IMG/VR virus record: IMGVR_UViG_3300020045_007949
Span: 1 to 64,000 of that record
Source of the DNA: a virus
Taxonomy: Duplodnaviria > Caudoviricetes
Strand: one strand, 5' to 3'
DNA: 64,000 nt
The notes under the pieces: generated by a model
Database searches by the model: none
Seen by the model: only the letters and a program-made list of their open reading frames with translations
Told to the model about the DNA's origin: nothing
Part shown: positions 4,413 through 51,162 of the stretch, in pieces
Position numbering within the stretch: position 1 is the first letter of the stretch
Layout: the number at the start of each line of letters is the position of its first letter
Translations under genes and position numbers: made by a program

Positions 4413-5087
4413 CTATACTACCACTTCTACTTTTTCCTTAAAGGTTATCTTATTATATTTCTGTACGAATACAGAACCCTTAAAGAATCTTGAATGTTGT
4501 GGTATAACCTCATTCTCTCTTGCAAAGATAAATTCAGAGTAAGAATAGTTTGGCAACTGTTCATATATAGGCTCAATATTTATGATGCCTCTATTCTGCA
4601 TACTATGCAAATACCTCGAACCGCTTGAATGACTTTTTAGACCGAAAAAAGAAGCTGCCTTTTTATTGCCCATACCTTGATAAGATACAGAAGGGATTTT
4701 CTTTTTGGATTGGTGGTTAAGAAAGTTTTCGTGCTTCGCAAGTTGATTGCTTAGTGCAAAATCTCTAATTTCTAATTTAGCTTCTTTTACTGTCCGTGAT
4801 TTGAAAACTAAAATACGATTACGCTTGACTTTGAAAGAGCCGTTTTCGTTTTCAATCTTTTTATAAGGATTGTCCCATAATAATTTGCGGACAGACGTGA
4901 AGATGATTCGTTCATTTTCTATGCGTACTAAGCCCGTTGAGATTAGACTTATTAGATGTTCGCATAAACTATTTCTTGAACATTGTATTCTCTGAGCAAA
5001 GTCAGTTTTATTTAGCTTTTCATAATTCAATACACTACCTTTCAAAGCAATATAGTATGCCAAAGAAACACGATGGTCTCTCAGCAT
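4413..5087 (-). CDS. winged-helix DNA-binding protein, possibly replication-initiator-like
   Basis: DFAQRIQCSRNSLCEHLISLISTGLVRIE wHTH pattern; track start 5147 lies inside the leader hairpin, so ATG 5087 preferred. Confidence 0.55.
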   Translation of the reverse strand: MLRDHRVSLAYYIALKGSVLNYEKLNKTDFAQRIQCSRNSLCEHLISLISTGLVRIENERIIFTSVRKLLWDNPYKKIENENGSFKVKRNRILVFKSRTVKEAKLEIRDFALSNQLAKHENFLNHQSKKKIPSVSYQGMGNKKAASFFGLKSHSSGSRYLHSMQNRGIINIEPIYEQLPNYSYSEFIFARENEVIPQHSRFFKGSVFVQKYNKITFKEKVEVVV

Positions 5088-5372: not shown

Positions 5373-5475
5373 TGGAAATGCGACAGGACTCGAACCTGCA
5401 CTAAGTTTTTCCATACTTAGCCTGTTTCTGTCTACTATTGACAGTTTAGATGTTTACCATTCCACCACGCACATC
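5373..5475 (-). tRNA. degenerate class II-like tRNA with ambiguous, expanded anticodon arm
   Basis: T arm GCAGG-TTCGAGT-CCTGT, Leu/Ser-like D arm GTGGAATGGTAAACAT, variable hairpin CTAAGT/ACTTAG; acceptor mismatched. Confidence 0.55.
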
Positions 5476-5481
5476 ATTTTA

Positions 5482-5609
5482 AATAGTCTTGCGGATTTAC
5501 ACCGCCAAGAAACGGAGTGTGCTTTGTCAACGATATTCTATTTCAAATATCCTTTCGTTTCAAGTGCTTTGGTATTGCACACACCAAGCATTGTATGGCT
5601 ACGACTATT
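5482..5609 (-). ncRNA. candidate tRNA-shaped structured ncRNA (128 nt)
   Basis: 7-bp closing stem AATAGTC/GACTATT, T-loop-like GCGG-TGTAAAT-CCGC, internal hairpins. Confidence 0.55.
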
Positions 5610-5611
5610 AG

Positions 5612-5684
5612 TACTCCGTGAGGTAATCGAAACCTCGATGACTTGGATGAAAACCAAGTGACTTAACCACTTGTCCAACGGAGC
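5612..5684 (-). tRNA. tRNA-Glu(TTC)
   Basis: Full cloverleaf: GCTCCGT/ACGGAGT, CTTGG-TT TTC AT-CCAAG. Confidence 0.9.
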
Positions 5685-5692
5685 AAAATTTG

Positions 5693-5765
5693 TGGAATCG
5701 CAGGGAATCGAACCCTGATTCTCTGAGTGCAAGTCAGAAGTAATGAGCCGTTATACGACAACCCC
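5693..5765 (-). tRNA. tRNA-Ala(TGC)
   Basis: TCTGA-CT TGC AC-TCAGA, G3:U70 identity pair, canonical T arm. Confidence 0.9.
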
Positions 5766-5848
5766 ATAATTTCTTGATTTATTATCGGGCTAAACCAAGA
5801 AAGCCTTTGTAATTCCCTTACCAATGGTAAAGGGCGGGATTCGGGAGT

Positions 5849-5980
5849 AATCAAAAACTGAGGGATTCCCACCCACATTTACTCACTACGATAAGCTGTG
5901 AATCTTGCAATTTAATGCCTCACCACTATTTGAGCGTCCTATACACGTAGCCATAAGGCTATTAGACGAAGTTTTTGATT
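5849..5980 (-). ncRNA. candidate tRNA-shaped structured ncRNA (132 nt)
   Basis: 11-bp closing stem AATCAAAAACT/AGTTTTTGATT, T-arm-like GTGGG-TGGGAAT-CCCTC abutting the 3' strand, several internal hairpins. Confidence 0.55.
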
Positions 5981-5983
5981 TAG

Positions 5984-6056
5984 GAGCGATGGCGGAAGTC
6001 GAATCCGCTATTTAAAGGTTATGAGCCTTTCGAGTAAACCGTTTCTCTCCATCGCA
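5984..6056 (-). tRNA. tRNA with CAT anticodon (Met/fMet/Ile2 unresolved)
   Basis: AAAGG-CT CAT AA-CCTTT; 1:72 mismatch; T arm GCGGA-TTCGACT-TCCGC. Confidence 0.85.
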
Positions 6057-6060
6057 CTGC

Positions 6061-6132
6061 TCACCTAAACAGGAGTCGAACCTGTACCCATCCAGTTTGT
6101 AGCCAAATGTTCTACCATTGAGTTATTAGGGA
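6061..6132 (-). tRNA. degenerate tRNA, apparent anticodon ACA (Cys-like)
   Basis: Canonical T arm ACAGG-TTCGACT-CCTGT; anticodon loop CT ACA AA; weak D and acceptor stems. Confidence 0.6.
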
Positions 6133-24982: not shown

Positions 24983-26061
24983 TAACTTTTGGAGTAAAAC
25001 AAGTAGGATTTAGTTCCGATATTAACGACCCATTGTACCTAAAGCCAATAAATATAGCTTTGGGAGAATGGTGGTCACTTGCTGTTCCAAAATCAGCATT
25101 ACCATCTTGTAAATTAAAATTAGCAGTTGTTAAGAATATTGGGTCAATAAGTGACGCTGATTGTAATTGCGGAGTAGAGATTAATAAAATAATTGACAAA
25201 AGTTGTTTGTATCAAATACCGAACGATGATACCTCTTATCTTAATCTAACCATTTTAGACAAGGAAATCATTCCTGCGTTTAACATAATCGTTGGAGAAG
25301 TTGAGATTCTTGAATTTGAAGGAGGAACAATTGATGATTTAATCCTCTTAATCAACGGGATGAATCTCGGAGTTGACGAATTGGGATATGGAATAAGGAT
25401 TTACTTCGATAAGAAATATAATGGCTCAACAGCGACTATTCAAGGAGCAGAGGAAGCGGTAAAGGAAGTTTATTTACTAAACGATAAATTCTGCTTCCTC
25501 TGCTCCAAATATGTAGGGATTAGTTTCTCGTTCTGCGAAATTGGTTGCCATAGACTCGCTTTCATTAACAATGATGGATGTATAGTTGCTTTTGCCAATC
25601 AATTTAACGTAGTCAAAAAAGCACCAAAAAATGAGAAAATAATCGAATATTACGCAAACGGATTTTATCATAGACATCGCTTATTCTTAGAATTAAAAAC
25701 CGCTACGTACTTGAATGAGGAAGAACAGAAGACTCTTTCTACTGGTGATATTTCTATTCTTAATGTGATTATTCGCACACAAAGAGAATTTTATACAGGA
25801 CTTTTAAATCACAAGCAACATCTCGAACTCCTTTCAGTATTCAAGAAGGAGTTTAAGATTGACGGTAAAAAGGCTTTAATGTTGGGGAGTTATAATAATG
25901 ACTCAGAAGGGTTCGGAAGAAAAAGCATCGGAAATGGAACTTTGAACTTCAAGGAAGAAACTTACAAGAACATTGACGCTTGCTCGACTGGTTGCGAAAG
26001 TGGGTCGATATTTATATATGAAATATATGAGACAGAAAAAGTACAAACTATTTTGCAATAA
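24979..26061 (+). CDS. tail tip/distal tail-like protein
   Basis: ATGA overlap; position. Confidence 0.55.
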   Translation: MITFGVKQVGFSSDINDPLYLKPINIALGEWWSLAVPKSALPSCKLKLAVVKNIGSISDADCNCGVEINKIIDKSCLYQIPNDDTSYLNLTILDKEIIPAFNIIVGEVEILEFEGGTIDDLILLINGMNLGVDELGYGIRIYFDKKYNGSTATIQGAEEAVKEVYLLNDKFCFLCSKYVGISFSFCEIGCHRLAFINNDGCIVAFANQFNVVKKAPKNEKIIEYYANGFYHRHRLFLELKTATYLNEEEQKTLSTGDISILNVIIRTQREFYTGLLNHKQHLELLSVFKKEFKIDGKKALMLGSYNNDSEGFGRKSIGNGTLNFKEETYKNIDACSTGCESGSIFIYEIYETEKVQTILQ

Positions 26062-26082
26062 TAAATAATTGTGTTATATTTG
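26052..26082 (+). promoter_or_regulatory. Bacteroidota consensus promoter
   Basis: TTTG-N19-TATATTTG; predicted +1 near 26087. Confidence 0.75.
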
Positions 26083-26086
26083 TCTT

Positions 26087-26159
26087 TCCAACCGAAAGTA
26101 AAATAATGAATGAGTAGTGAGAAACGAACAGCCATCTTTTACTTTTTACGTTAGTTGGA
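26087..26159 (+). ncRNA. structured RNA element A (homolog of B)
   Basis: TCCAAC/GTTGGA plus AAAGTAAAA/TTTTACTTT nested stems. Confidence 0.55.
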
Positions 26160-26267
26160 GATTCAGAACGATCCAAACACCGCTTTCACGAAGTCGCCAG
26201 TTATGAATAAGGACTAATTAAAAAATAAAACTATAAACATAGCGGCTTATAATTATGGTATGAAACT

Positions 26268-26468
26268 ATGAAAAAGAAATTCGACCAAACTTTTGAAAAA
26301 GGAGCAGTATATGACGACGATATAATGCAAATAATTAGAGAAATTAACCATATTTCACACAAGCCGACCGAAGAAGAAAAAGGCATTGTTGCAGGAGATG
26401 TGGGGGAACTTTCTTATTATACTATTTTGAGAAAGAAAATAAGGTTAGTATTATATGTCGAAGAATAA
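26268..26468 (+). CDS. hypothetical protein (66 aa)
   Basis: ORF track; own promoter and terminator. Confidence 0.65.
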   Translation: MKKKFDQTFEKGAVYDDDIMQIIREINHISHKPTEEEKGIVAGDVGELSYYTILRKKIRLVLYVEE

Positions 26469-26471
26469 ATT

Positions 26472-26536
26472 TCCAACCAAAAGGATTGCGATAATTTGAG
26501 GCGAAGCCGAAGACATTTCGTAATCCGAAAGTTGGA
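26472..26536 (+). ncRNA. structured RNA element B (homolog of A)
   Basis: TCCAAC/GTTGGA plus GGATTGCGA/TCGTAATCC, apical GGC-GAA-GCC. Confidence 0.6.
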
Positions 26537-26548
26537 CTCACTGATATT

Positions 26549-26585
26549 AAAATCCCTTCAATTTATGACGATTGAAGGGATTTTT
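26549..26585 (+). terminator. intrinsic terminator
   Basis: AAAATCCCTTCAAT/ATTGAAGGGATTTT plus T. Confidence 0.85.
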
Positions 26586-26601
26586 GCGTTTTATTGATAA
26601 C

Positions 26602-26632
26602 TTGGAAATAAGAAATATTTTTCGTATATTTG
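26602..26632 (+). promoter_or_regulatory. Bacteroidota-type promoter
   Basis: TTG-N20-TATATTTG. Confidence 0.7.
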
Positions 26633-26676
26633 CCATTGAAATTTCACATTGATTAATCAAAAAAACCAACTCAACA

Positions 26677-27084
26677 ATGAAAAGTTTAATTTTAGCTTTC
26701 TTTTTATTAATTTCAAGTTTGACATTTGCTCAGACAAATCCTGCGACGAACTTTGTACCTGCTTTAGATACATTAACAAATGCTGGCACAGCACCATTGA
26801 CAAAACTCTTGGTTGCACCTTATTCGACCGTAACAGTACAGGTAAAGGTAACTAAGATTTCGGGAACAGTTGGTGGAACAGTAACTTTAACAGGTAGTAT
26901 CGACGGAAGTATTTATTATGCTATTTCGGGTGCTTCCTCATTGACGCTTACTGATACTGCAACGCAAGGAACAATTTGGATTGTAACAGGAAACCCTTAT
27001 AGTTATTACAAAGTCTTGGGTACAGGAACAGGAACTATGGCAGCTTCAATATCAGCAAAAGTTCTGCCGAGAAAGAATTTCTAA
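26677..27084 (+). CDS. secreted or exported beta-rich protein
   Basis: Signal peptide MKSLILAFFLLISSLTFAQ; Thr/Gly-rich. Confidence 0.75.
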   Translation: MKSLILAFFLLISSLTFAQTNPATNFVPALDTLTNAGTAPLTKLLVAPYSTVTVQVKVTKISGTVGGTVTLTGSIDGSIYYAISGASSLTLTDTATQGTIWIVTGNPYSYYKVLGTGTGTMAASISAKVLPRKNF

Positions 27085-27095
27085 GTAGCCTACAC

Positions 27096-27135
27096 AAAAA
27101 AATCCGTATAGTTTTGTCATTGTGCGGATTTTTTT
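27096..27135 (+). terminator. intrinsic terminator
   Basis: AAAAAAATCCGTA/TGCGGATTTTTTT. Confidence 0.75.
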
Positions 27136-27146
27136 ATTTAAAAACA

Positions 27147-27178
27147 TTTGGAATTTAATTTTATTAGTACTACATTTG
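27147..27178 (+). promoter_or_regulatory. promoter of the leader and tRNA array 2
   Basis: TTTG-N20-TACATTTG; predicted +1 near 27183. Confidence 0.8.
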
Positions 27179-27182
27179 TGAC

Positions 27183-27245
27183 ATGAAAAACATTTCTCTA
27201 CATACTCAACGCCAACTACCGCAAAATTTATTTGAGGAGTGCTGA
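27183..27245 (+). CDS. putative leader peptide MKNISLHTQRQLPQNLFEEC
   Basis: ATG at predicted +1; 8 of codons 6-14 are CNN; stop 25 nt before the terminator. Confidence 0.65.
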   Translation: MKNISLHTQRQLPQNLFEEC

Positions 27246-27269
27246 CTATGTATTGAATTTCAATATTAG

Positions 27270-27309
27270 AAAATGGCTTCTCATTAATTTGAGAAGCCAT
27301 TTTTATTTT
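27270..27309 (+). terminator. attenuator terminator upstream of tRNA array 2
   Basis: Perfect 14-bp stem AAAATGGCTTCTCA/TGAGAAGCCATTTT, then TATTTT. Confidence 0.85.
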
Positions 27310-27311
27310 AA

Positions 27312-27387
27312 CTATCGGTGGAGGAGTCAGCCCGTCCTCGCCTGTCTTGGACACAGGAGTTCGCAAGTTGGAATCTTGCTCGATAGA
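27312..27387 (+). tRNA. tRNA-Pro(TGG)
   Basis: CTATCGG/TCGATAG, CCTGT-CT TGG AC-ACAGG, T arm GCAAG-TTGGAAT-CTTGC. Confidence 0.85.
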
Positions 27388-27443
27388 CGATTAAGACTGT
27401 TATTAATTCATAGGTCGTGTGTAGATGCGTAGAATTAAATTAT

Positions 27444-27515
27444 TTCGGATTGTTGTAATGGTTAGCAAATTTGTTTTTGAAGCAAATAGTTGGGGTTCAA
27501 ATCCCTAATCCGAAT
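27444..27515 (+). tRNA. tRNA-Gln(TTG)
   Basis: TTCGGAT/ATCCGAA, TTTGT-TT TTG AA-GCAAA. Confidence 0.9.
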
Positions 27516-27516
27516 C

Positions 27517-27585
27517 TAAGGCGTAGTTTAATTAAAACGACTTTTATGGGGAGAGTTGATATAGGTGAGAATCCTGTCTCTTTTA
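27517..27585 (+). pseudogene. degenerate tRNA-Pro(TGG)
   Basis: Cloverleaf with mismatched acceptor, loop TA TGG GG (A33), T loop TGAGAAT. Confidence 0.6.
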
Positions 27586-27588
27586 CAT

Positions 27589-27660
27589 GGTGTTATTACG
27601 CTAAAGGTAGGCGGATAGATTGTGAATCTATTGGTAACGGTTCGACCCCGTTATAATACC
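27589..27660 (+). tRNA. tRNA-His(GTG)
   Basis: G-1:C73 signature, ATAGA-TT GTG AA-TCTAT. Confidence 0.92.
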
Positions 27661-27666
27661 CTAAAA

Positions 27667-27741
27667 GGCGATATGATGCAAATGGAAGACATAGGATACT
27701 TAGAATATCCTTTTTTAAAGGTTCAAATCCTTTTATCGTCA
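27667..27741 (+). tRNA. tRNA-Leu(TAG) with short variable loop
   Basis: GGCGATA/TATCGTC, GGATA-CT TAG AA-TATCC. Confidence 0.85.
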
Positions 27742-27742
27742 C

Positions 27743-27816
27743 AATTTTATAGTTTAACGGAAAAACAGCCAAATACGAATTGGCAGACGATTGTTCGATT
27801 CAGTCTAAAATTACCA
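27743..27816 (+). tRNA. tRNA-Arg(ACG), CCA encoded
   Basis: AATTTTA/TAAAATT-A-CCA, GCCAA-AT ACG AA-TTGGC. Confidence 0.88.
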
Positions 27817-27852
27817 ATATAGCCAAGACTCATATATTGGCTATATCTTTTT
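27817..27852 (+). terminator. terminator closing tRNA array 2
   Basis: ATATAGCCAA/TTGGCTATAT plus CTTTTT. Confidence 0.75.
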
Positions 27853-28222
27853 CTATTAGTGAATAAATCTTTTCTGTAATCCAACCATTCAAATAACAAT
27901 ACGCTTCTTGCGGTGAAACTGTATAATCTATTCCAAGTCTTTCGCACACAAAGAATGTGGCGTGACTAATTTCGTGACTCAAAGTTGATTTCCAAGAATA
28001 AGAGTCTAAATATCTATCTGTATTTATTATGATTAATCCATGATGATTATGGCAATACCAACTATCTGCATAAAACTCAGACAATTCGTCTTTCAATGTA
28101 GCCATTAATAAGTCATTGGGTCTATATTTTTCAAACACAAAATCGCATATTTCATTAGGATTATTATGAACTGAAAATACAAACTGTATTGGGTAAATTT
28201 CACTCTTAAAAGTTTGTAACAT
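27830..28222 (-). CDS. HExxH metallopeptidase-like protein
   Basis: HEISH followed by QEAYCYL; start moved to ATG 28222. Confidence 0.65.
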   Translation of the reverse strand: MLQTFKSEIYPIQFVFSVHNNPNEICDFVFEKYRPNDLLMATLKDELSEFYADSWYCHNHHGLIIINTDRYLDSYSWKSTLSHEISHATFFVCERLGIDYTVSPQEAYCYLNGWITEKIYSLIEKDIANI

Positions 28223-28223
28223 A

Positions 28224-29399
28224 TTATCTCTTCCAGTTAAAAAATAATTCACTAAATAATTTTCCCTCTTCATTGTAGTTAAAAAATACGATACCGCTTT
28301 TACCTTTCTTATATCCCGTTTGAACCCAATTAGAAGAAGGAGATAACGCTGGGTAATTGTAGTAATTGAATCTATCCGAAGTTGAGTTGTCGAATAAATA
28401 TTGGTGACTATCTCCTTTAGAAAACTCGATTACAACGTCTTTTTGAAGTAAAAAGTGTTCATCTATATAGTTATTTATTTTACCCTCTTGTATGGCATCT
28501 AAATGTGGCTTAAATCCAAACTTTAGGTTCTTAGAGTCTTTGCCGTGAGAGAGAATGAATATGTATTTTCCTACATTGTAGTGTTCAATGAACTTTCTGT
28601 GATTATAAACCTCAACTCTTCCTTTATGACACGCTTCCATATAAGTCTTAATTGCCGAATTTGCTATATAATCAAAAGATGCTGAATGGTTTGATTCACA
28701 CACGTTATGACAAATAACCTTGTCATAAGTCAAAAGAAACGCCTCTATCATTCTTCTCTTGAAAGAAAACCCTAAATCAAACGCTTCTTGGTTTCCCATA
28801 TTTTGAGGCAAATCATGTTCTCTTCTTACAGTTTTGCCATCGAATCCGTCGAAGAAGTCGCCTAAATCATCAATGTAGAGCGTATTTGATTTTTGGTTAT
28901 ACATTGCGTGACTAACTATTCTTATCAATCTATCTTCCACTTCTTCCTTATCCCACTTACCGCCATAAAGAGAATAGCCGTCCTCATTTGGTGTCATACC
29001 AATGTGAGTATCTGTAAATACTAATCTATCAAATGAATTACTTAAACCCAAAACACTAACTTTTTTAATTTCAATCGGCTTTAAAAGTGGCTCAAACTTT
29101 GCAAGGAAATTTCCTAAAATATCAACCACTTCTCTTTCTTGTTTTTCTTCGTAATAGGGATTCTCAACTCTCACAGATTCGCTCTTAGTTTTTAGCCAAA
29201 TCATTTTAACATCTTTCGGAGAAACACCTACATTATTACAGGCATCTACTATTCCATCGCTATTTTCTTCTCTTAGTCCTCTATACTCGTAAACCTGTTC
29301 TATTTGTTCCTGTGTTAGCCTGTATCTATTCTTAACTGTACTGTGTGTTAGCCCTAATAATGTGATTTCGTCTTGCGTGAGAGTCAGTTTCCTGTTCAT
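28224..29399 (-). CDS. calcineurin-like metallophosphoesterase
   Basis: FTDTHIG, DLGDFFDG, ESNH, SHG, GDSHQ motifs; start moved to ATG 29399. Confidence 0.85.
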   Translation of the reverse strand: MNRKLTLTQDEITLLGLTHSTVKNRYRLTQEQIEQVYEYRGLREENSDGIVDACNNVGVSPKDVKMIWLKTKSESVRVENPYYEEKQEREVVDILGNFLAKFEPLLKPIEIKKVSVLGLSNSFDRLVFTDTHIGMTPNEDGYSLYGGKWDKEEVEDRLIRIVSHAMYNQKSNTLYIDDLGDFFDGFDGKTVRREHDLPQNMGNQEAFDLGFSFKRRMIEAFLLTYDKVICHNVCESNHSASFDYIANSAIKTYMEACHKGRVEVYNHRKFIEHYNVGKYIFILSHGKDSKNLKFGFKPHLDAIQEGKINNYIDEHFLLQKDVVIEFSKGDSHQYLFDNSTSDRFNYYNYPALSPSSNWVQTGYKKGKSGIVFFNYNEEGKLFSELFFNWKR

Positions 29400-49909: not shown

Positions 49910-51034
49910 TTAATACTTATTATATTTACAGTTAATTTCTTTTACTCTTTCACGAACTTTCTTTACGAGTTCAGTACCACTGTAATTTTTAGAATAATAG
50001 TATTCTAACGCTGCATAAAACGAATCCTCATTGTAGAATGAACCTAAATTTGGTTCTTCTTGGTCAAATTTGTATCTTCCGAATGAAGAAAATTTTGTAT
50101 CATTGAGGTATTTAGGTTGCTCTTCTTGTGGGTCTTGGTAGAAGTTTTCAAATTCCTCTTGGTTTTTAAGGCTTGAAATTGAATAAGGGTTTCTCCATTC
50201 TCCTTTCGCTACTATGTAGTTGAAAAATTCAGTAGCCTTTTCTTCCCCAAACTTTTCGTAAACAACTCCAAGCAGGTGAGCGTTTCCTGCTTTTTCTTCT
50301 CTTGTCTTGCCACTTTTGTTTGGTCTTGTAAATTGTCTGTCCTTTGGTAAGCCTTCGTTAAACTCTTTCACTCGTGCGTTAATCCAAGTATATTTTTCAG
50401 GATTTGACTGATAATTTGATTTTGACTTCTTCTTTTGCTTCTCTACTGGAATAGTTACATAATTTATTGGAATAATGCAATTCAATTCTATATTGGTTTT
50501 CTTACTTTCATACATTACTGTATCAGATGTAAGTAAAGAAATATCATCTTTATTTTCTTCCGCAGGAATATAGTTATTTTTATATTCTTTATTTTTAAGG
50601 TCTATATTATTATAGGCGAGCGTTTCTGACGTGTCAGGTAGCAGAGGGGTCTGTTTGGCTGTTGTCTGCTTTTCGACTCTTTCTCCATCATTTCCTACAT
50701 AAATAATGTTCGGAAAAGATAATCCTTCTGCCTTATTTTCAAATATCTCATAATAACTACCACTCATTGATTTTGATTCTATATTGTAAATCTTAACCAA
50801 CTTTGCATAGCCTAACTTAGATAGATTCTTGAAGCCTCTCTTTACAGCACCTTCTGTCCAACCACCGTCTTTTCCGTTTTTAACTAACTCTGTGATATTA
50901 GAAGTCCAATTATCACTCCTTGAAAGCAAGCGTGTAAGGACTGCTAAGCCTTCCATTGATAACTTTTCGTCACGCAAGAGAATATTCTCTAATTGCGTAA
51001 ACTTGTCTGATTTATTTACTCTGAAATTTGACAT
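49910..51034 (-). CDS. replication initiator / replisome organizer (N-terminal wHTH)
   Basis: FTQLENILLRDEKLSMEGLAVLTRLLSRSDNW...G.AVKRGFKNL...GY; start moved to ATG 51034. Confidence 0.8.
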   Translation of the reverse strand: MSNFRVNKSDKFTQLENILLRDEKLSMEGLAVLTRLLSRSDNWTSNITELVKNGKDGGWTEGAVKRGFKNLSKLGYAKLVKIYNIESKSMSGSYYEIFENKAEGLSFPNIIYVGNDGERVEKQTTAKQTPLLPDTSETLAYNNIDLKNKEYKNNYIPAEENKDDISLLTSDTVMYESKKTNIELNCIIPINYVTIPVEKQKKKSKSNYQSNPEKYTWINARVKEFNEGLPKDRQFTRPNKSGKTREEKAGNAHLLGVVYEKFGEEKATEFFNYIVAKGEWRNPYSISSLKNQEEFENFYQDPQEEQPKYLNDTKFSSFGRYKFDQEEPNLGSFYNEDSFYAALEYYYSKNYSGTELVKKVRERVKEINCKYNKY

Positions 51035-51044
51035 TGTTGTGTAT

Positions 51045-51108
51045 AAAAAAAACACCTCAAAAAGATAGCCCCCGAAGGGTGTAGTGCCTGCTATCAATTT
51101 GAGGTGTT
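51045..51108 (-). terminator. terminator hairpin in the 5' UTR of the initiator
   Basis: 11-bp + 6-bp + CCC-UUCG-GGG stem, 10-nt bulge, U-tract. Confidence 0.75.
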
Positions 51109-51130
51109 CCTCGTGTAATATTTTCTGTTA

Positions 51131-51162
51131 CAAATTTACGAACAAGGCACTACCGATGCAAG
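51131..51162 (-). promoter_or_regulatory. initiator promoter
   Basis: CTTG-N20-TAAATTTG. Confidence 0.7.

Follow-up and report, generated by a model that had tools for sequence, protein, structure and literature searches.

What decides when a phage expresses the transfer RNA (tRNA) genes that it carries? This question is raised by a locus in IMG/VR virus record IMGVR_UViG_3300020045_007949, which belongs to a freshwater phage of Bacteroidota type. We analysed the first 64 kb of the 74-kb record (positions 1–64,000; G+C content 0.34), referred to here as the window. Between positions 27,147 and 27,309, a promoter, a 20-codon open reading frame (ORF) and an intrinsic terminator precede an array of five tRNA genes. 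An initial annotation had proposed that this leader controls the array by attenuation, its codons being matched to the tRNAs that follow. The anatomy and the codon-to-tRNA match recur in many phages, with conserved geometry and conserved pairing, and the region is probably a ribosome-mediated transcription attenuator (trp/his/ilv type) placed before a phage tRNA operon. This reading is supported by the match between leaders and arrays in relatives, by the position of the antiterminator in 11 of 11 leaders, by constrained folds and by amino-acid-changing substitutions that remain compatible with pairing.

Results

Leader ORF and codon block

The sequence upstream of the leader fits the Bacteroidota sigma-A promoter (−33 TTTG, spacer of 19–21 nucleotides (nt), −7 TAnnTTTG), and the promoter is found where the initial annotation had placed it, with TTTG, a 20-nt spacer, TACATTTG and 4 nt leading to ATG 27183 (Table 1). 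In Flavobacterium psychrophilum, the TAnnTTTG box of sigma-A lies at −12 to −5 (PMC9723704), which would therefore put +1 on the A of this ATG. The leader mRNA is accordingly predicted, from the box spacing only, to be leaderless. The pattern TTTG-N18–22-TAnnTTTG has nine matches in the window versus 4.4 expected, and matches of the motif in bacterial genomes fall mostly in Bacteroidota.

The 20-codon ORF is likewise present as annotated. Its codons 6–14 read CTA CAT ACT CAA CGC CAA CTA CCG CAA, so that eight of the nine start with C, and they cover the same five amino acids as the tRNAs. The array reads 8/9 of these block codons, and all five tRNAs (Pro, Gln, His, Leu-TAG and Arg-ACG) are covered within seven codons. 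Codons starting with C (CNN) make up 11.4% of codons in the long ORFs of this phage. Across 128 kb (both strands), there are 19 nine-codon stretches in which eight or more codons start with C, a frequency that corresponds to ∼0.02 expected per 130-nt leader. For a random 19-codon ORF drawn from the codon usage of the phage, the probability that all five tRNAs are covered anywhere is 2e-3; that they are covered within seven or fewer consecutive codons, as observed, it is 8e-5. Taken by itself, the codon pattern in the window goes only moderately beyond chance, and on the window alone we would consider attenuation rather unlikely.

Three arrays behind three matched leaders in a related contig

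Through a homologue of the 147-amino-acid (aa) protein encoded beside the array, we reached L012, a 76-kb JGI contig with the same gene order as the window. Between its 147-aa and 135-aa genes, ARAGORN detects 19 tRNAs, which are arranged in three arrays. In front of each array are TATATTTG and, 4 nt further on, an ATG that opens a short ORF, followed by a terminator (hairpin and T-run) that stops 2–8 nt short of the first tRNA; the 4-nt distance from box to ATG seen in the window is shared by all three units (L012_A, L012_B and L012_C).

Unit B, the homologue of the window leader, carries the block L-H-T-Q-R-Q-L-P-Q before Pro, Gln, His, Leu-TAG and Arg-ACG tRNAs. Unit A has the block S-Y-S-S-F-C-Y-W-F (TCA TAT AGT TCG TTT TGT TAT TGG TTC), followed by Phe, Trp, Cys, Tyr, Ser-TGA and Ser-GCT. 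The block of unit C spans 15 codons, including Met, Asn, Lys, Ile (ATT, ATA), Ala, Gly, Val, Arg (AGA), Asp and Thr, and its array comprises Arg-TCT, Ile-TAT, Lys, Asp, Ile-GAT, Val, Ala, Thr, Gly-TCC, Asn and Met. Leaders A, B and C cover 6/6, 5/5 and 11/11 tRNAs of their own arrays, and the matrix of leaders against arrays is dominated by its diagonal (9/4/7, 2/10/6 and 3/2/17).

Leader codons without a matching tRNA predicted three tRNAs that ARAGORN had missed, and these were then located in gaps of the L012 arrays. Leu-TAG scores 31 bits with the Rfam tRNA model and Ser-TGA 47 bits with the Rfam long-arm tRNA-Sec model (the best clan match for this type II tRNA); Gly-TCC is supported by a relaxed ARAGORN search and by a cloverleaf as its minimum free energy (MFE) fold. 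Since the leader codons found what the gene finder had overlooked, the rule is also of practical use in annotation.

The window and L012_B leader ORFs differ by four synonymous and three non-synonymous codon changes, with codons 7–14 identical. In the tail of the ORF, Glu is replaced by Gly and Cys by His, and pairing is kept in both cases (A-U to G-U and U-G to C-G). Within the terminator, a single pair is swapped in a compensatory manner (27274 T/27299 A to A/T), and the spacer hairpin differs in its loop only.

Recurrence in other phages

We scanned viral contigs with the promoter/start motif common to L012 units A and B, a procedure that is blind to codon content and to tRNAs, and obtained 114 matches. 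All seven matches in which a short ORF is followed by tRNAs within ∼140 nt show the design, although the array of one of them, L116_3, runs off the end of its contig and gives no information. L042 has the block Q-Q-H-Q-Q-L-R-P, followed by Pro, Gln, His, Arg and Leu tRNAs. The block L-R-H-P-Q-Q precedes Pro, Gln, His and Arg in L054, L079 and L119, and Pro, Gln, His, Arg and Leu in L088. The leader of L037 is rich in Leu and Ser and is followed by Leu-TAG, Leu-TAA, Ser-TGA and Ser-GCT. Among bacterial-genome matches to the same motif the design was found in 0/120, versus 9/114 in viral contigs. A candidate leader unit in L044 was rejected, as its 8-codon ORF is followed by an ordinary gene.

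Contig L116 has two more co-directional units, the leaders of which cover 10/10 and 6/6 downstream tRNAs; the 5′ untranslated region of one unit is 35 nt long, and the other unit lacks its own promoter. A leaderless start is hence not obligatory, since these two units are not leaderless. Two further units, in L038 and L118, came from arrays lying in fetched loci and are outside the motif selection. The L038 leader covers 8/8 tRNAs. The L118 unit (minus strand, oriented 467–642) has a Leu-only array with anticodons taa, caa, aag and gag, a strong terminator and a leader in which each of the six Leu codons occurs. We see no TAnnTTTG box in this unit, and for that reason L118 may derive from a phage of another host group.

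Every complete array that has such a leader is fully covered by it, and the leader ORF is 19–36 codons long in 13/13 comparable units. The initial annotation had asked whether leader codons co-vary with tRNA content in relatives, and this is what we observe: CNN leaders accompany CNN arrays (L012_B, L042, L054/L079/L119 and L088), while other tRNA sets have leaders matched to them (L012_A, L012_C, L037, L116_1, L116_2, L038 and L118). A relative that keeps the array and has lost the CNN-rich leader was not encountered, as every related or analogous CNN array that we found has a Leu/His/Gln/Arg/Pro leader. Among leaders of the L054 type, all substitutions are non-synonymous and all lie outside the invariant block. 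Since the tRNAs of these phages have strongly diverged from one another, the design has been maintained rather than simply copied recently.

As a measure of significance, we used a post hoc statistic of coverage and span, for which the codon usage of the window phage served as the background throughout. If eight units are taken to be independent, their combined value is ∼2e-21, which is only indicative in magnitude. This statistic was used in place of a binomial test over the whole ORF because background frequencies of 0.4–0.55 make the latter weak for large arrays.

The arrays of L012 (4425–6688) and L116 (11050–13198) are also sorted by the first letter of the codon, which anticodon position 36 reads. 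Both contigs have CNN, UNN (plus Ser-GCT) and ANN+GNN cassettes, each with its own leader. The CNN cassette of L116 additionally contains a Glu tRNA, and its leader contains GAG and GAA.

Terminator, predicted antiterminator and leader folding

The initial annotation described a perfect 14-base-pair (bp) terminator between leader and tRNAs. We find a hairpin of 15 pairs at 27269–27304 (14 Watson–Crick pairs and one G-T), with a 6-nt loop and a T-run that extends to 27309. Its fold has −21 kcal/mol, and it is among the strongest terminator-like sites of the window and one of the two strongest in 20–40 kb. The tRNA-Pro gene begins 3 nt after the T-run and 8 nt after the hairpin itself, and the 23-nt spacer between ORF and terminator holds a small hairpin. 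An intrinsic terminator directly before the first tRNA is present in all compared units.

The last sense codons of the leader (27233–27240, region 2) pair with the 5′ arm of the terminator (27276–27283, region 3) at 8/8 positions, as proposed initially. For each of the 11 leaders measured, the upstream stretch that best complements the terminator 5′ arm ends 2–11 nt before the stop codon and falls in the last one to seven sense codons. Region 2 of these leaders visibly mimics the 3′ arm of the terminator in sequence (for example, TGGGTGG versus GGGTGGC and CGGGAGG versus TGGGAGGC). The antiterminator of L042 comprises 11 bp when three nucleotides upstream of the arm are counted, and 8 bp when computed against the arm itself.

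Folding of the nascent transcript, taken as far as the loop of the terminator, was predicted with the codon block masked by a ribosome footprint. Under this constraint, the helix between regions 2 and 3 (2:3) is part of the predicted MFE structure in 10/11 leaders. For the window, the fold with the ribosome on the block has −14.9 kcal/mol, with the spacer hairpin nested inside the antiterminator; without ribosome, a hairpin between the block and region 2 (1:2) forms instead. In several other leaders, the 2:3 helix forms even without a ribosome.

Rfam searches gave two sub-threshold resemblances, one of the window (27197–27309) to the trpB motif RF04312 (25 bits; threshold 59) and one of L012_B (4884–5009, minus strand) to Thr_leader RF00506 (26 bits; threshold 55).

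A proposed model for attenuation of the tRNA operon

As a candidate leader-peptide attenuator, the region has a short 5′ ORF, clustered codons, a Rho-independent terminator and, in silico, a mutually exclusive antiterminator; its target genes are five tRNAs, whereas every member described so far controls genes for amino-acid biosynthesis or an aminoacyl-tRNA synthetase. We infer the transcription start, the translation of the leader and the direction and size of the switch from the sequence. In the proposed mechanism, host RNA polymerase would start at or next to ATG 27183, and a ribosome would translate the 20-codon leader while polymerase heads for the terminator at 27269–27309. Fast decoding of the Leu-CUN, His, Gln, Arg-CGN and Pro codons (27198–27224) would bring the ribosome to the stop codon, where it would cover region 2; the terminator would then fold, and the tRNA genes would be off. 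Slow decoding of any block codon would stall the ribosome and leave region 2 free to pair with region 3, and polymerase would read through into the Pro-Gln-His-Leu-Arg genes, from the transcript of which RNase P would release the tRNAs. The phage would thus probably make these tRNAs only when block codons are decoded slowly. Such a circuit would act as an OR gate over five decoding capacities and as a demand-driven negative feedback loop, which would be homeostatic because its output (tRNA) is the quantity sensed.

Several observations weigh against this reading. None of the array tRNAs is cognate to the block codon ACT (Thr), and the reading of CCG and CGC depends on inosine or wobble. In Bacteroidota, few mRNAs are leaderless (3.7–5.5% according to the literature). 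The antiterminator of the window has only 8 bp with two G-U pairs, and its duplex has −9.9 kcal/mol (RNAduplex) versus −21 kcal/mol for the terminator. Since 25/500 shuffles (5%) pair equally well, the 2:3 pairing of the window is weak evidence by itself. Also, the stability of the 1:2 hairpin, in which the block pairs with 27232–27253 in the MFE fold, does not reach significance (z = −1.8). Such a leader is missing from many other phage tRNA arrays in the loci that we retrieved. A second array in the window (5375–6132, minus strand) lies behind a promoter and an ORF of 61 aa, and has neither a terminator nor a matched leader; we regard it as lacking an attenuator because no terminator follows its ORF.

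Alternative explanations

The read-through might be set by a factor: a phage or host protein or RNA could carry polymerase past the terminator at a set time of infection, the mini-ORF being secondary. There is a precedent in the window for a promoter-proximal terminator without an ORF, before a replication-type gene at ∼51030–51160 (minus strand), and another route of antitermination may therefore exist, which is a further point against attenuation. This region has a TAAATTTG promoter box, no ORF and a long hairpin with a T8 run ending ∼13 nt before ATG 51034–51032; the 395-aa ORF as listed starts at TTG 51097, inside the hairpin region. However, factor-dependent antitermination leaves unexplained why leaders cover their own arrays in many phages and why the complement of the terminator arm always lies just before the stop codon, and no boxA-like sequence is present in the leader. 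We consider it improbable. Still less probable is sensing independent of translation, in which leader triplets would pair directly with tRNA anticodons and stabilise the antiterminator. T-box elements are known tRNA sensors, and leader triplets are complementary to anticodons by definition. Nevertheless, no T-box match was found at E values up to 10 in 26900–28000 (Rfam) or in L012, nor any Rfam family above threshold. Also, no specifier-loop architecture is seen, and the blocks of every unit are contiguous and in frame with the ATG, with the stop codon just after region 2.

The remaining two explanations have the lowest probabilities. If the leader were an independent small RNA or micropeptide gene whose terminator is constitutive, leaky read-through would supply the tRNAs, and chance would account for the codon match in the window. 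In the window alone, the probability of the codon pattern is only ∼1e-2 to 1e-4 and the antiterminator is weak, and contigs L004, L005 and L009 lack the cassette. Against this, the codon match recurs in at least 10 other units with different tRNA sets, and because of this recurrence we regard chance or an independent small RNA gene as excluded for practical purposes. Moreover, the peptide outside the block is not conserved, while the block codons and the RNA pairing are; a conserved block and conserved pairings with a peptide free to vary are the signature of an attenuator leader. Finally, the hairpin at 27269–27304 could mainly terminate transcription of the 422-aa and 147-aa genes, which form the convergent operon on the minus strand and would be read antisense through the tRNAs. 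The A-run 5′ of this hairpin gives TTTTC on the minus strand, and the hairpin at 27817–27846 has no minus-strand T-run. In L116, however, each of the three units points in the same direction as its flanks and the terminator still lies directly before the first tRNA, and the spacing from terminator to first tRNA is conserved at 3–8 nt, making such a role very unlikely to be the main one.

Genomic context and tRNA array

In three viral contigs (L003, L004 and L005) and one metagenome contig (L009/L010), all of them syntenic with the window, the flanking genes share 63–93% protein identity with those of the window. The cassette is absent from all of these relatives, from which we read the insertion boundary. 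Since L004, L005 and L009 have the 135-aa gene, the bidirectional terminator and, convergent to them, the 422-aa gene within ∼80 nt of one another, positions 27140–28223 represent an insertion relative to these phages (compared with L004 7185–7268 and L009 4405–4480). The insertion holds the promoter, leader, terminator, tRNAs, closing terminator and 147-aa gene. Upstream of it, the hairpin at 27096–27136 is predicted to insulate the cassette against transcription from the structural operon. The insertion site, between two convergent operons, is a variable hot spot, with another ORF in L003 and three cassettes in L012.

The leader was also found at 90–96% identity in Logan contigs from lake, freshwater and wastewater metagenomes, which span 27141–27531. 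Of the sequencing runs, three DNA metagenomes contain small shares of this DNA, and no RNA run is listed for it. One Logan contig of 16.7 kb joins 27101 to 27832, with leader and tRNAs missing, and the cassette is evidently accessory. A blastn search with 26000–28300 against 50,697 phage records gave no match. Exact scans of viral contigs with the tRNA-Pro T arm, the terminator hairpin, the CNN block and a tRNA-His segment common to L012 gave nothing, and the 360-aa neighbour, used as query, found no relatives among viral contigs.

All five tRNAs have A37, Pro-TGG and Leu-TAG included. Bacterial tRNA-Pro and tRNA-Leu-CUN usually have G37, modified to 1-methylguanosine (m1G). ARAGORN draws a full cloverleaf for the tRNA-Pro at 27312–27388, although the Rfam tRNA model does not detect it. 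This tRNA has the T-loop TTGGAAT and a D-loop without GG, where the L012 homologue has canonical TTCAAAT and GG; the change looks like a swapped G19–C56 tertiary pair. The second array of the window, discussed above, contains a Cys-like tRNA, a CAT tRNA at 5984–6056 that ARAGORN missed, Ala and Glu tRNAs and a weak tRNA-like element at 5375–5474.

The 147-aa protein that adjoins the array (27830–28273, minus strand) has an HExxH motif and matches phrog_1365; its match to the zincin-like metallopeptidase family PF18818 is sub-threshold (19 bits; cut-off 27.5). Its homologues lie next to the tRNA region in L012 and, elsewhere, also occur without tRNAs. Additionally, the L009/L010 locus is present twice, 69,798 bp apart, on contig Ga0209246_10000003 (139,783 bp), suggesting a concatemeric assembly of a ∼69.8-kb genome. 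The CheckV completeness of 53% for the 74-kb record of the window may therefore be too low.

Table 1. Features of the leader, the tRNA array and the adjoining genes (window positions)
Feature	Position	Strand	Remarks
135-aa gene, last of structural operon	stop at 27084		
Bidirectional hairpin terminator ending the upstream structural operon	27096..27136	.	Hairpin also 3′ of the homologous gene in L004 and L009
−33 element TTTG, Bacteroidota sigma-A type promoter	27147..27150	+	20-nt spacer to −7 box
−7 box TACATTTG (TAnnTTTG)	27171..27178	+	4 nt before ATG 27183; predicts +1 at 27183
Leader ORF, 20 codons, predicted leaderless	27183..27245	+	L012 homologue keeps frame and stop position
Regulatory codon block, codons 6–14 (Leu His Thr Gln Arg Gln Leu Pro Gln)	27198..27224	+	Also 5′ side of predicted hairpin 1:2
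Region 2, 5′ strand of predicted antiterminator	27233..27240	+	Last three sense codons, 3–12 nt before stop
Small spacer hairpin (6 bp, 3-nt loop), nested in antiterminator structure	27251..27265	+	Fold
Intrinsic terminator: 15-bp stem, 6-nt loop, T-run	27269..27309	+	Region 3 = 27276–27283 in 5′ arm; region 4 = 3′ arm
tRNA-Pro (TGG), A37, unusual D and T loops	27312..27388	+	ARAGORN
tRNA-Gln (TTG)	27444..27516	+	ARAGORN, Rfam
Degenerate second tRNA-Pro (TGG)-like element	27517..27586	+	Relaxed ARAGORN only
tRNA-His (GTG)	27590..27661	+	ARAGORN, Rfam
tRNA-Leu (TAG)	27667..27742	+	ARAGORN, Rfam
tRNA-Arg (ACG)	27743..27816	+	ARAGORN, Rfam
Hairpin (10 bp) and T-run closing the tRNA unit	27817..27852	+	Fold; overlaps 3′ end of convergent 147-aa gene

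Discussion

What would the circuit respond to? The initial annotation had suggested that it senses host tRNA destruction or hypomodification, i.e., that it serves anti-defence. This is speculation that is compatible with the data, and the trigger could equally well be a mismatch in codon usage or the decay of host tRNAs in the course of infection. It is conceivable, if doubtful, that the class-sorted cassettes (CNN, UNN and ANN+GNN), each with a test strip for all of its tRNAs, are mobile, self-regulating and inducible anti-defence modules in several phage lineages. A cassette would then be switched on when the host loses the decoding of one class through anticodon nucleases, loss of position-37 modification or host shut-off, and A37 in all five CNN-decoding tRNAs would make them independent of m1G37.

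If attenuation operates as proposed, a textbook mechanism of bacterial control would extend to tRNA genes, for which we found no earlier report, and phages would gauge the decoding capacity of the host codon by codon and top it up on demand. This would offer a testable answer to how phage tRNA expression is controlled and would help to explain why phage tRNA sets are organised in blocks. The leaders would also provide compact (∼130 nt) Bacteroidota parts that report tRNA or codon availability, and they would be tied to tRNA-targeting defences, the attacks of which would induce such a switch.

Phage tRNA arrays are discussed in terms of codon compensation and counter-defence, and like the array described here they are clusters that replace or supplement host tRNAs. 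T-even phages, for example, are reported to escape the tRNA-cleaving Septu system with phage tRNAs (PMC13096335). Unlike the present array, those in the literature that we searched are not described as being under a decoding-speed sensor, and a full-text literature search gave no account of leader-peptide attenuation of tRNA genes, whether in phages or elsewhere.

T-box riboswitches resemble the leaders in that they sense tRNA status and switch between terminator and antiterminator upstream of translation-apparatus genes. They differ in binding tRNA directly, without translation, and in having a conserved Stem I and T-box sequence, and to our knowledge they are essentially absent from Bacteroidota. 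In the proline-codon leaders mgtL and mgtP of Salmonella, the speed of decoding at specific codons sets read-through, as it would here; these leaders control Mg2+ transporter and virulence genes rather than tRNA genes, and act largely through Rho or alternative stem-loops. In E. coli, pheST (pheM leader) is attenuated according to the supply of charged phenylalanyl-tRNA. It shares with our locus a leader-peptide attenuator over a component of the decoding apparatus, but that component is a synthetase, a single amino acid is involved and the operon is chromosomal.

The closest relatives in mechanism are the attenuators of amino-acid operons, such as trpL, hisL, leuL and pheL and the multivalent leaders of ilvGMEDA (Ile/Leu/Val) and thr (Thr/Ile) in E. 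coli and Salmonella. As predicted for the phage units (with a putative 1:2 hairpin), a promoter-proximal short ORF with clustered codons is followed by an intrinsic terminator in a 1:2/2:3/3:4 topology, and the 5′ strand of the antiterminator is masked by a ribosome at the stop codon. The Leu-only unit of L118 resembles the leu leader. What sets the phage units apart is that tRNA genes would be regulated rather than biosynthetic enzymes, and that the leader holds one or two codons for each of 4–11 tRNAs rather than a run for a single amino acid. They are also phage-borne, with a Bacteroidota promoter and a probably leaderless start, and their output would feed back on the sensed quantity. The phylum offers a precedent in Flavobacterium, where leader-peptide attenuation of amino-acid operons has been reported (PMC9723704). 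The class of mechanism is thus a textbook one, whereas its use for a tRNA operon, the leader that lists every tRNA and the class-sorted cassettes are new.

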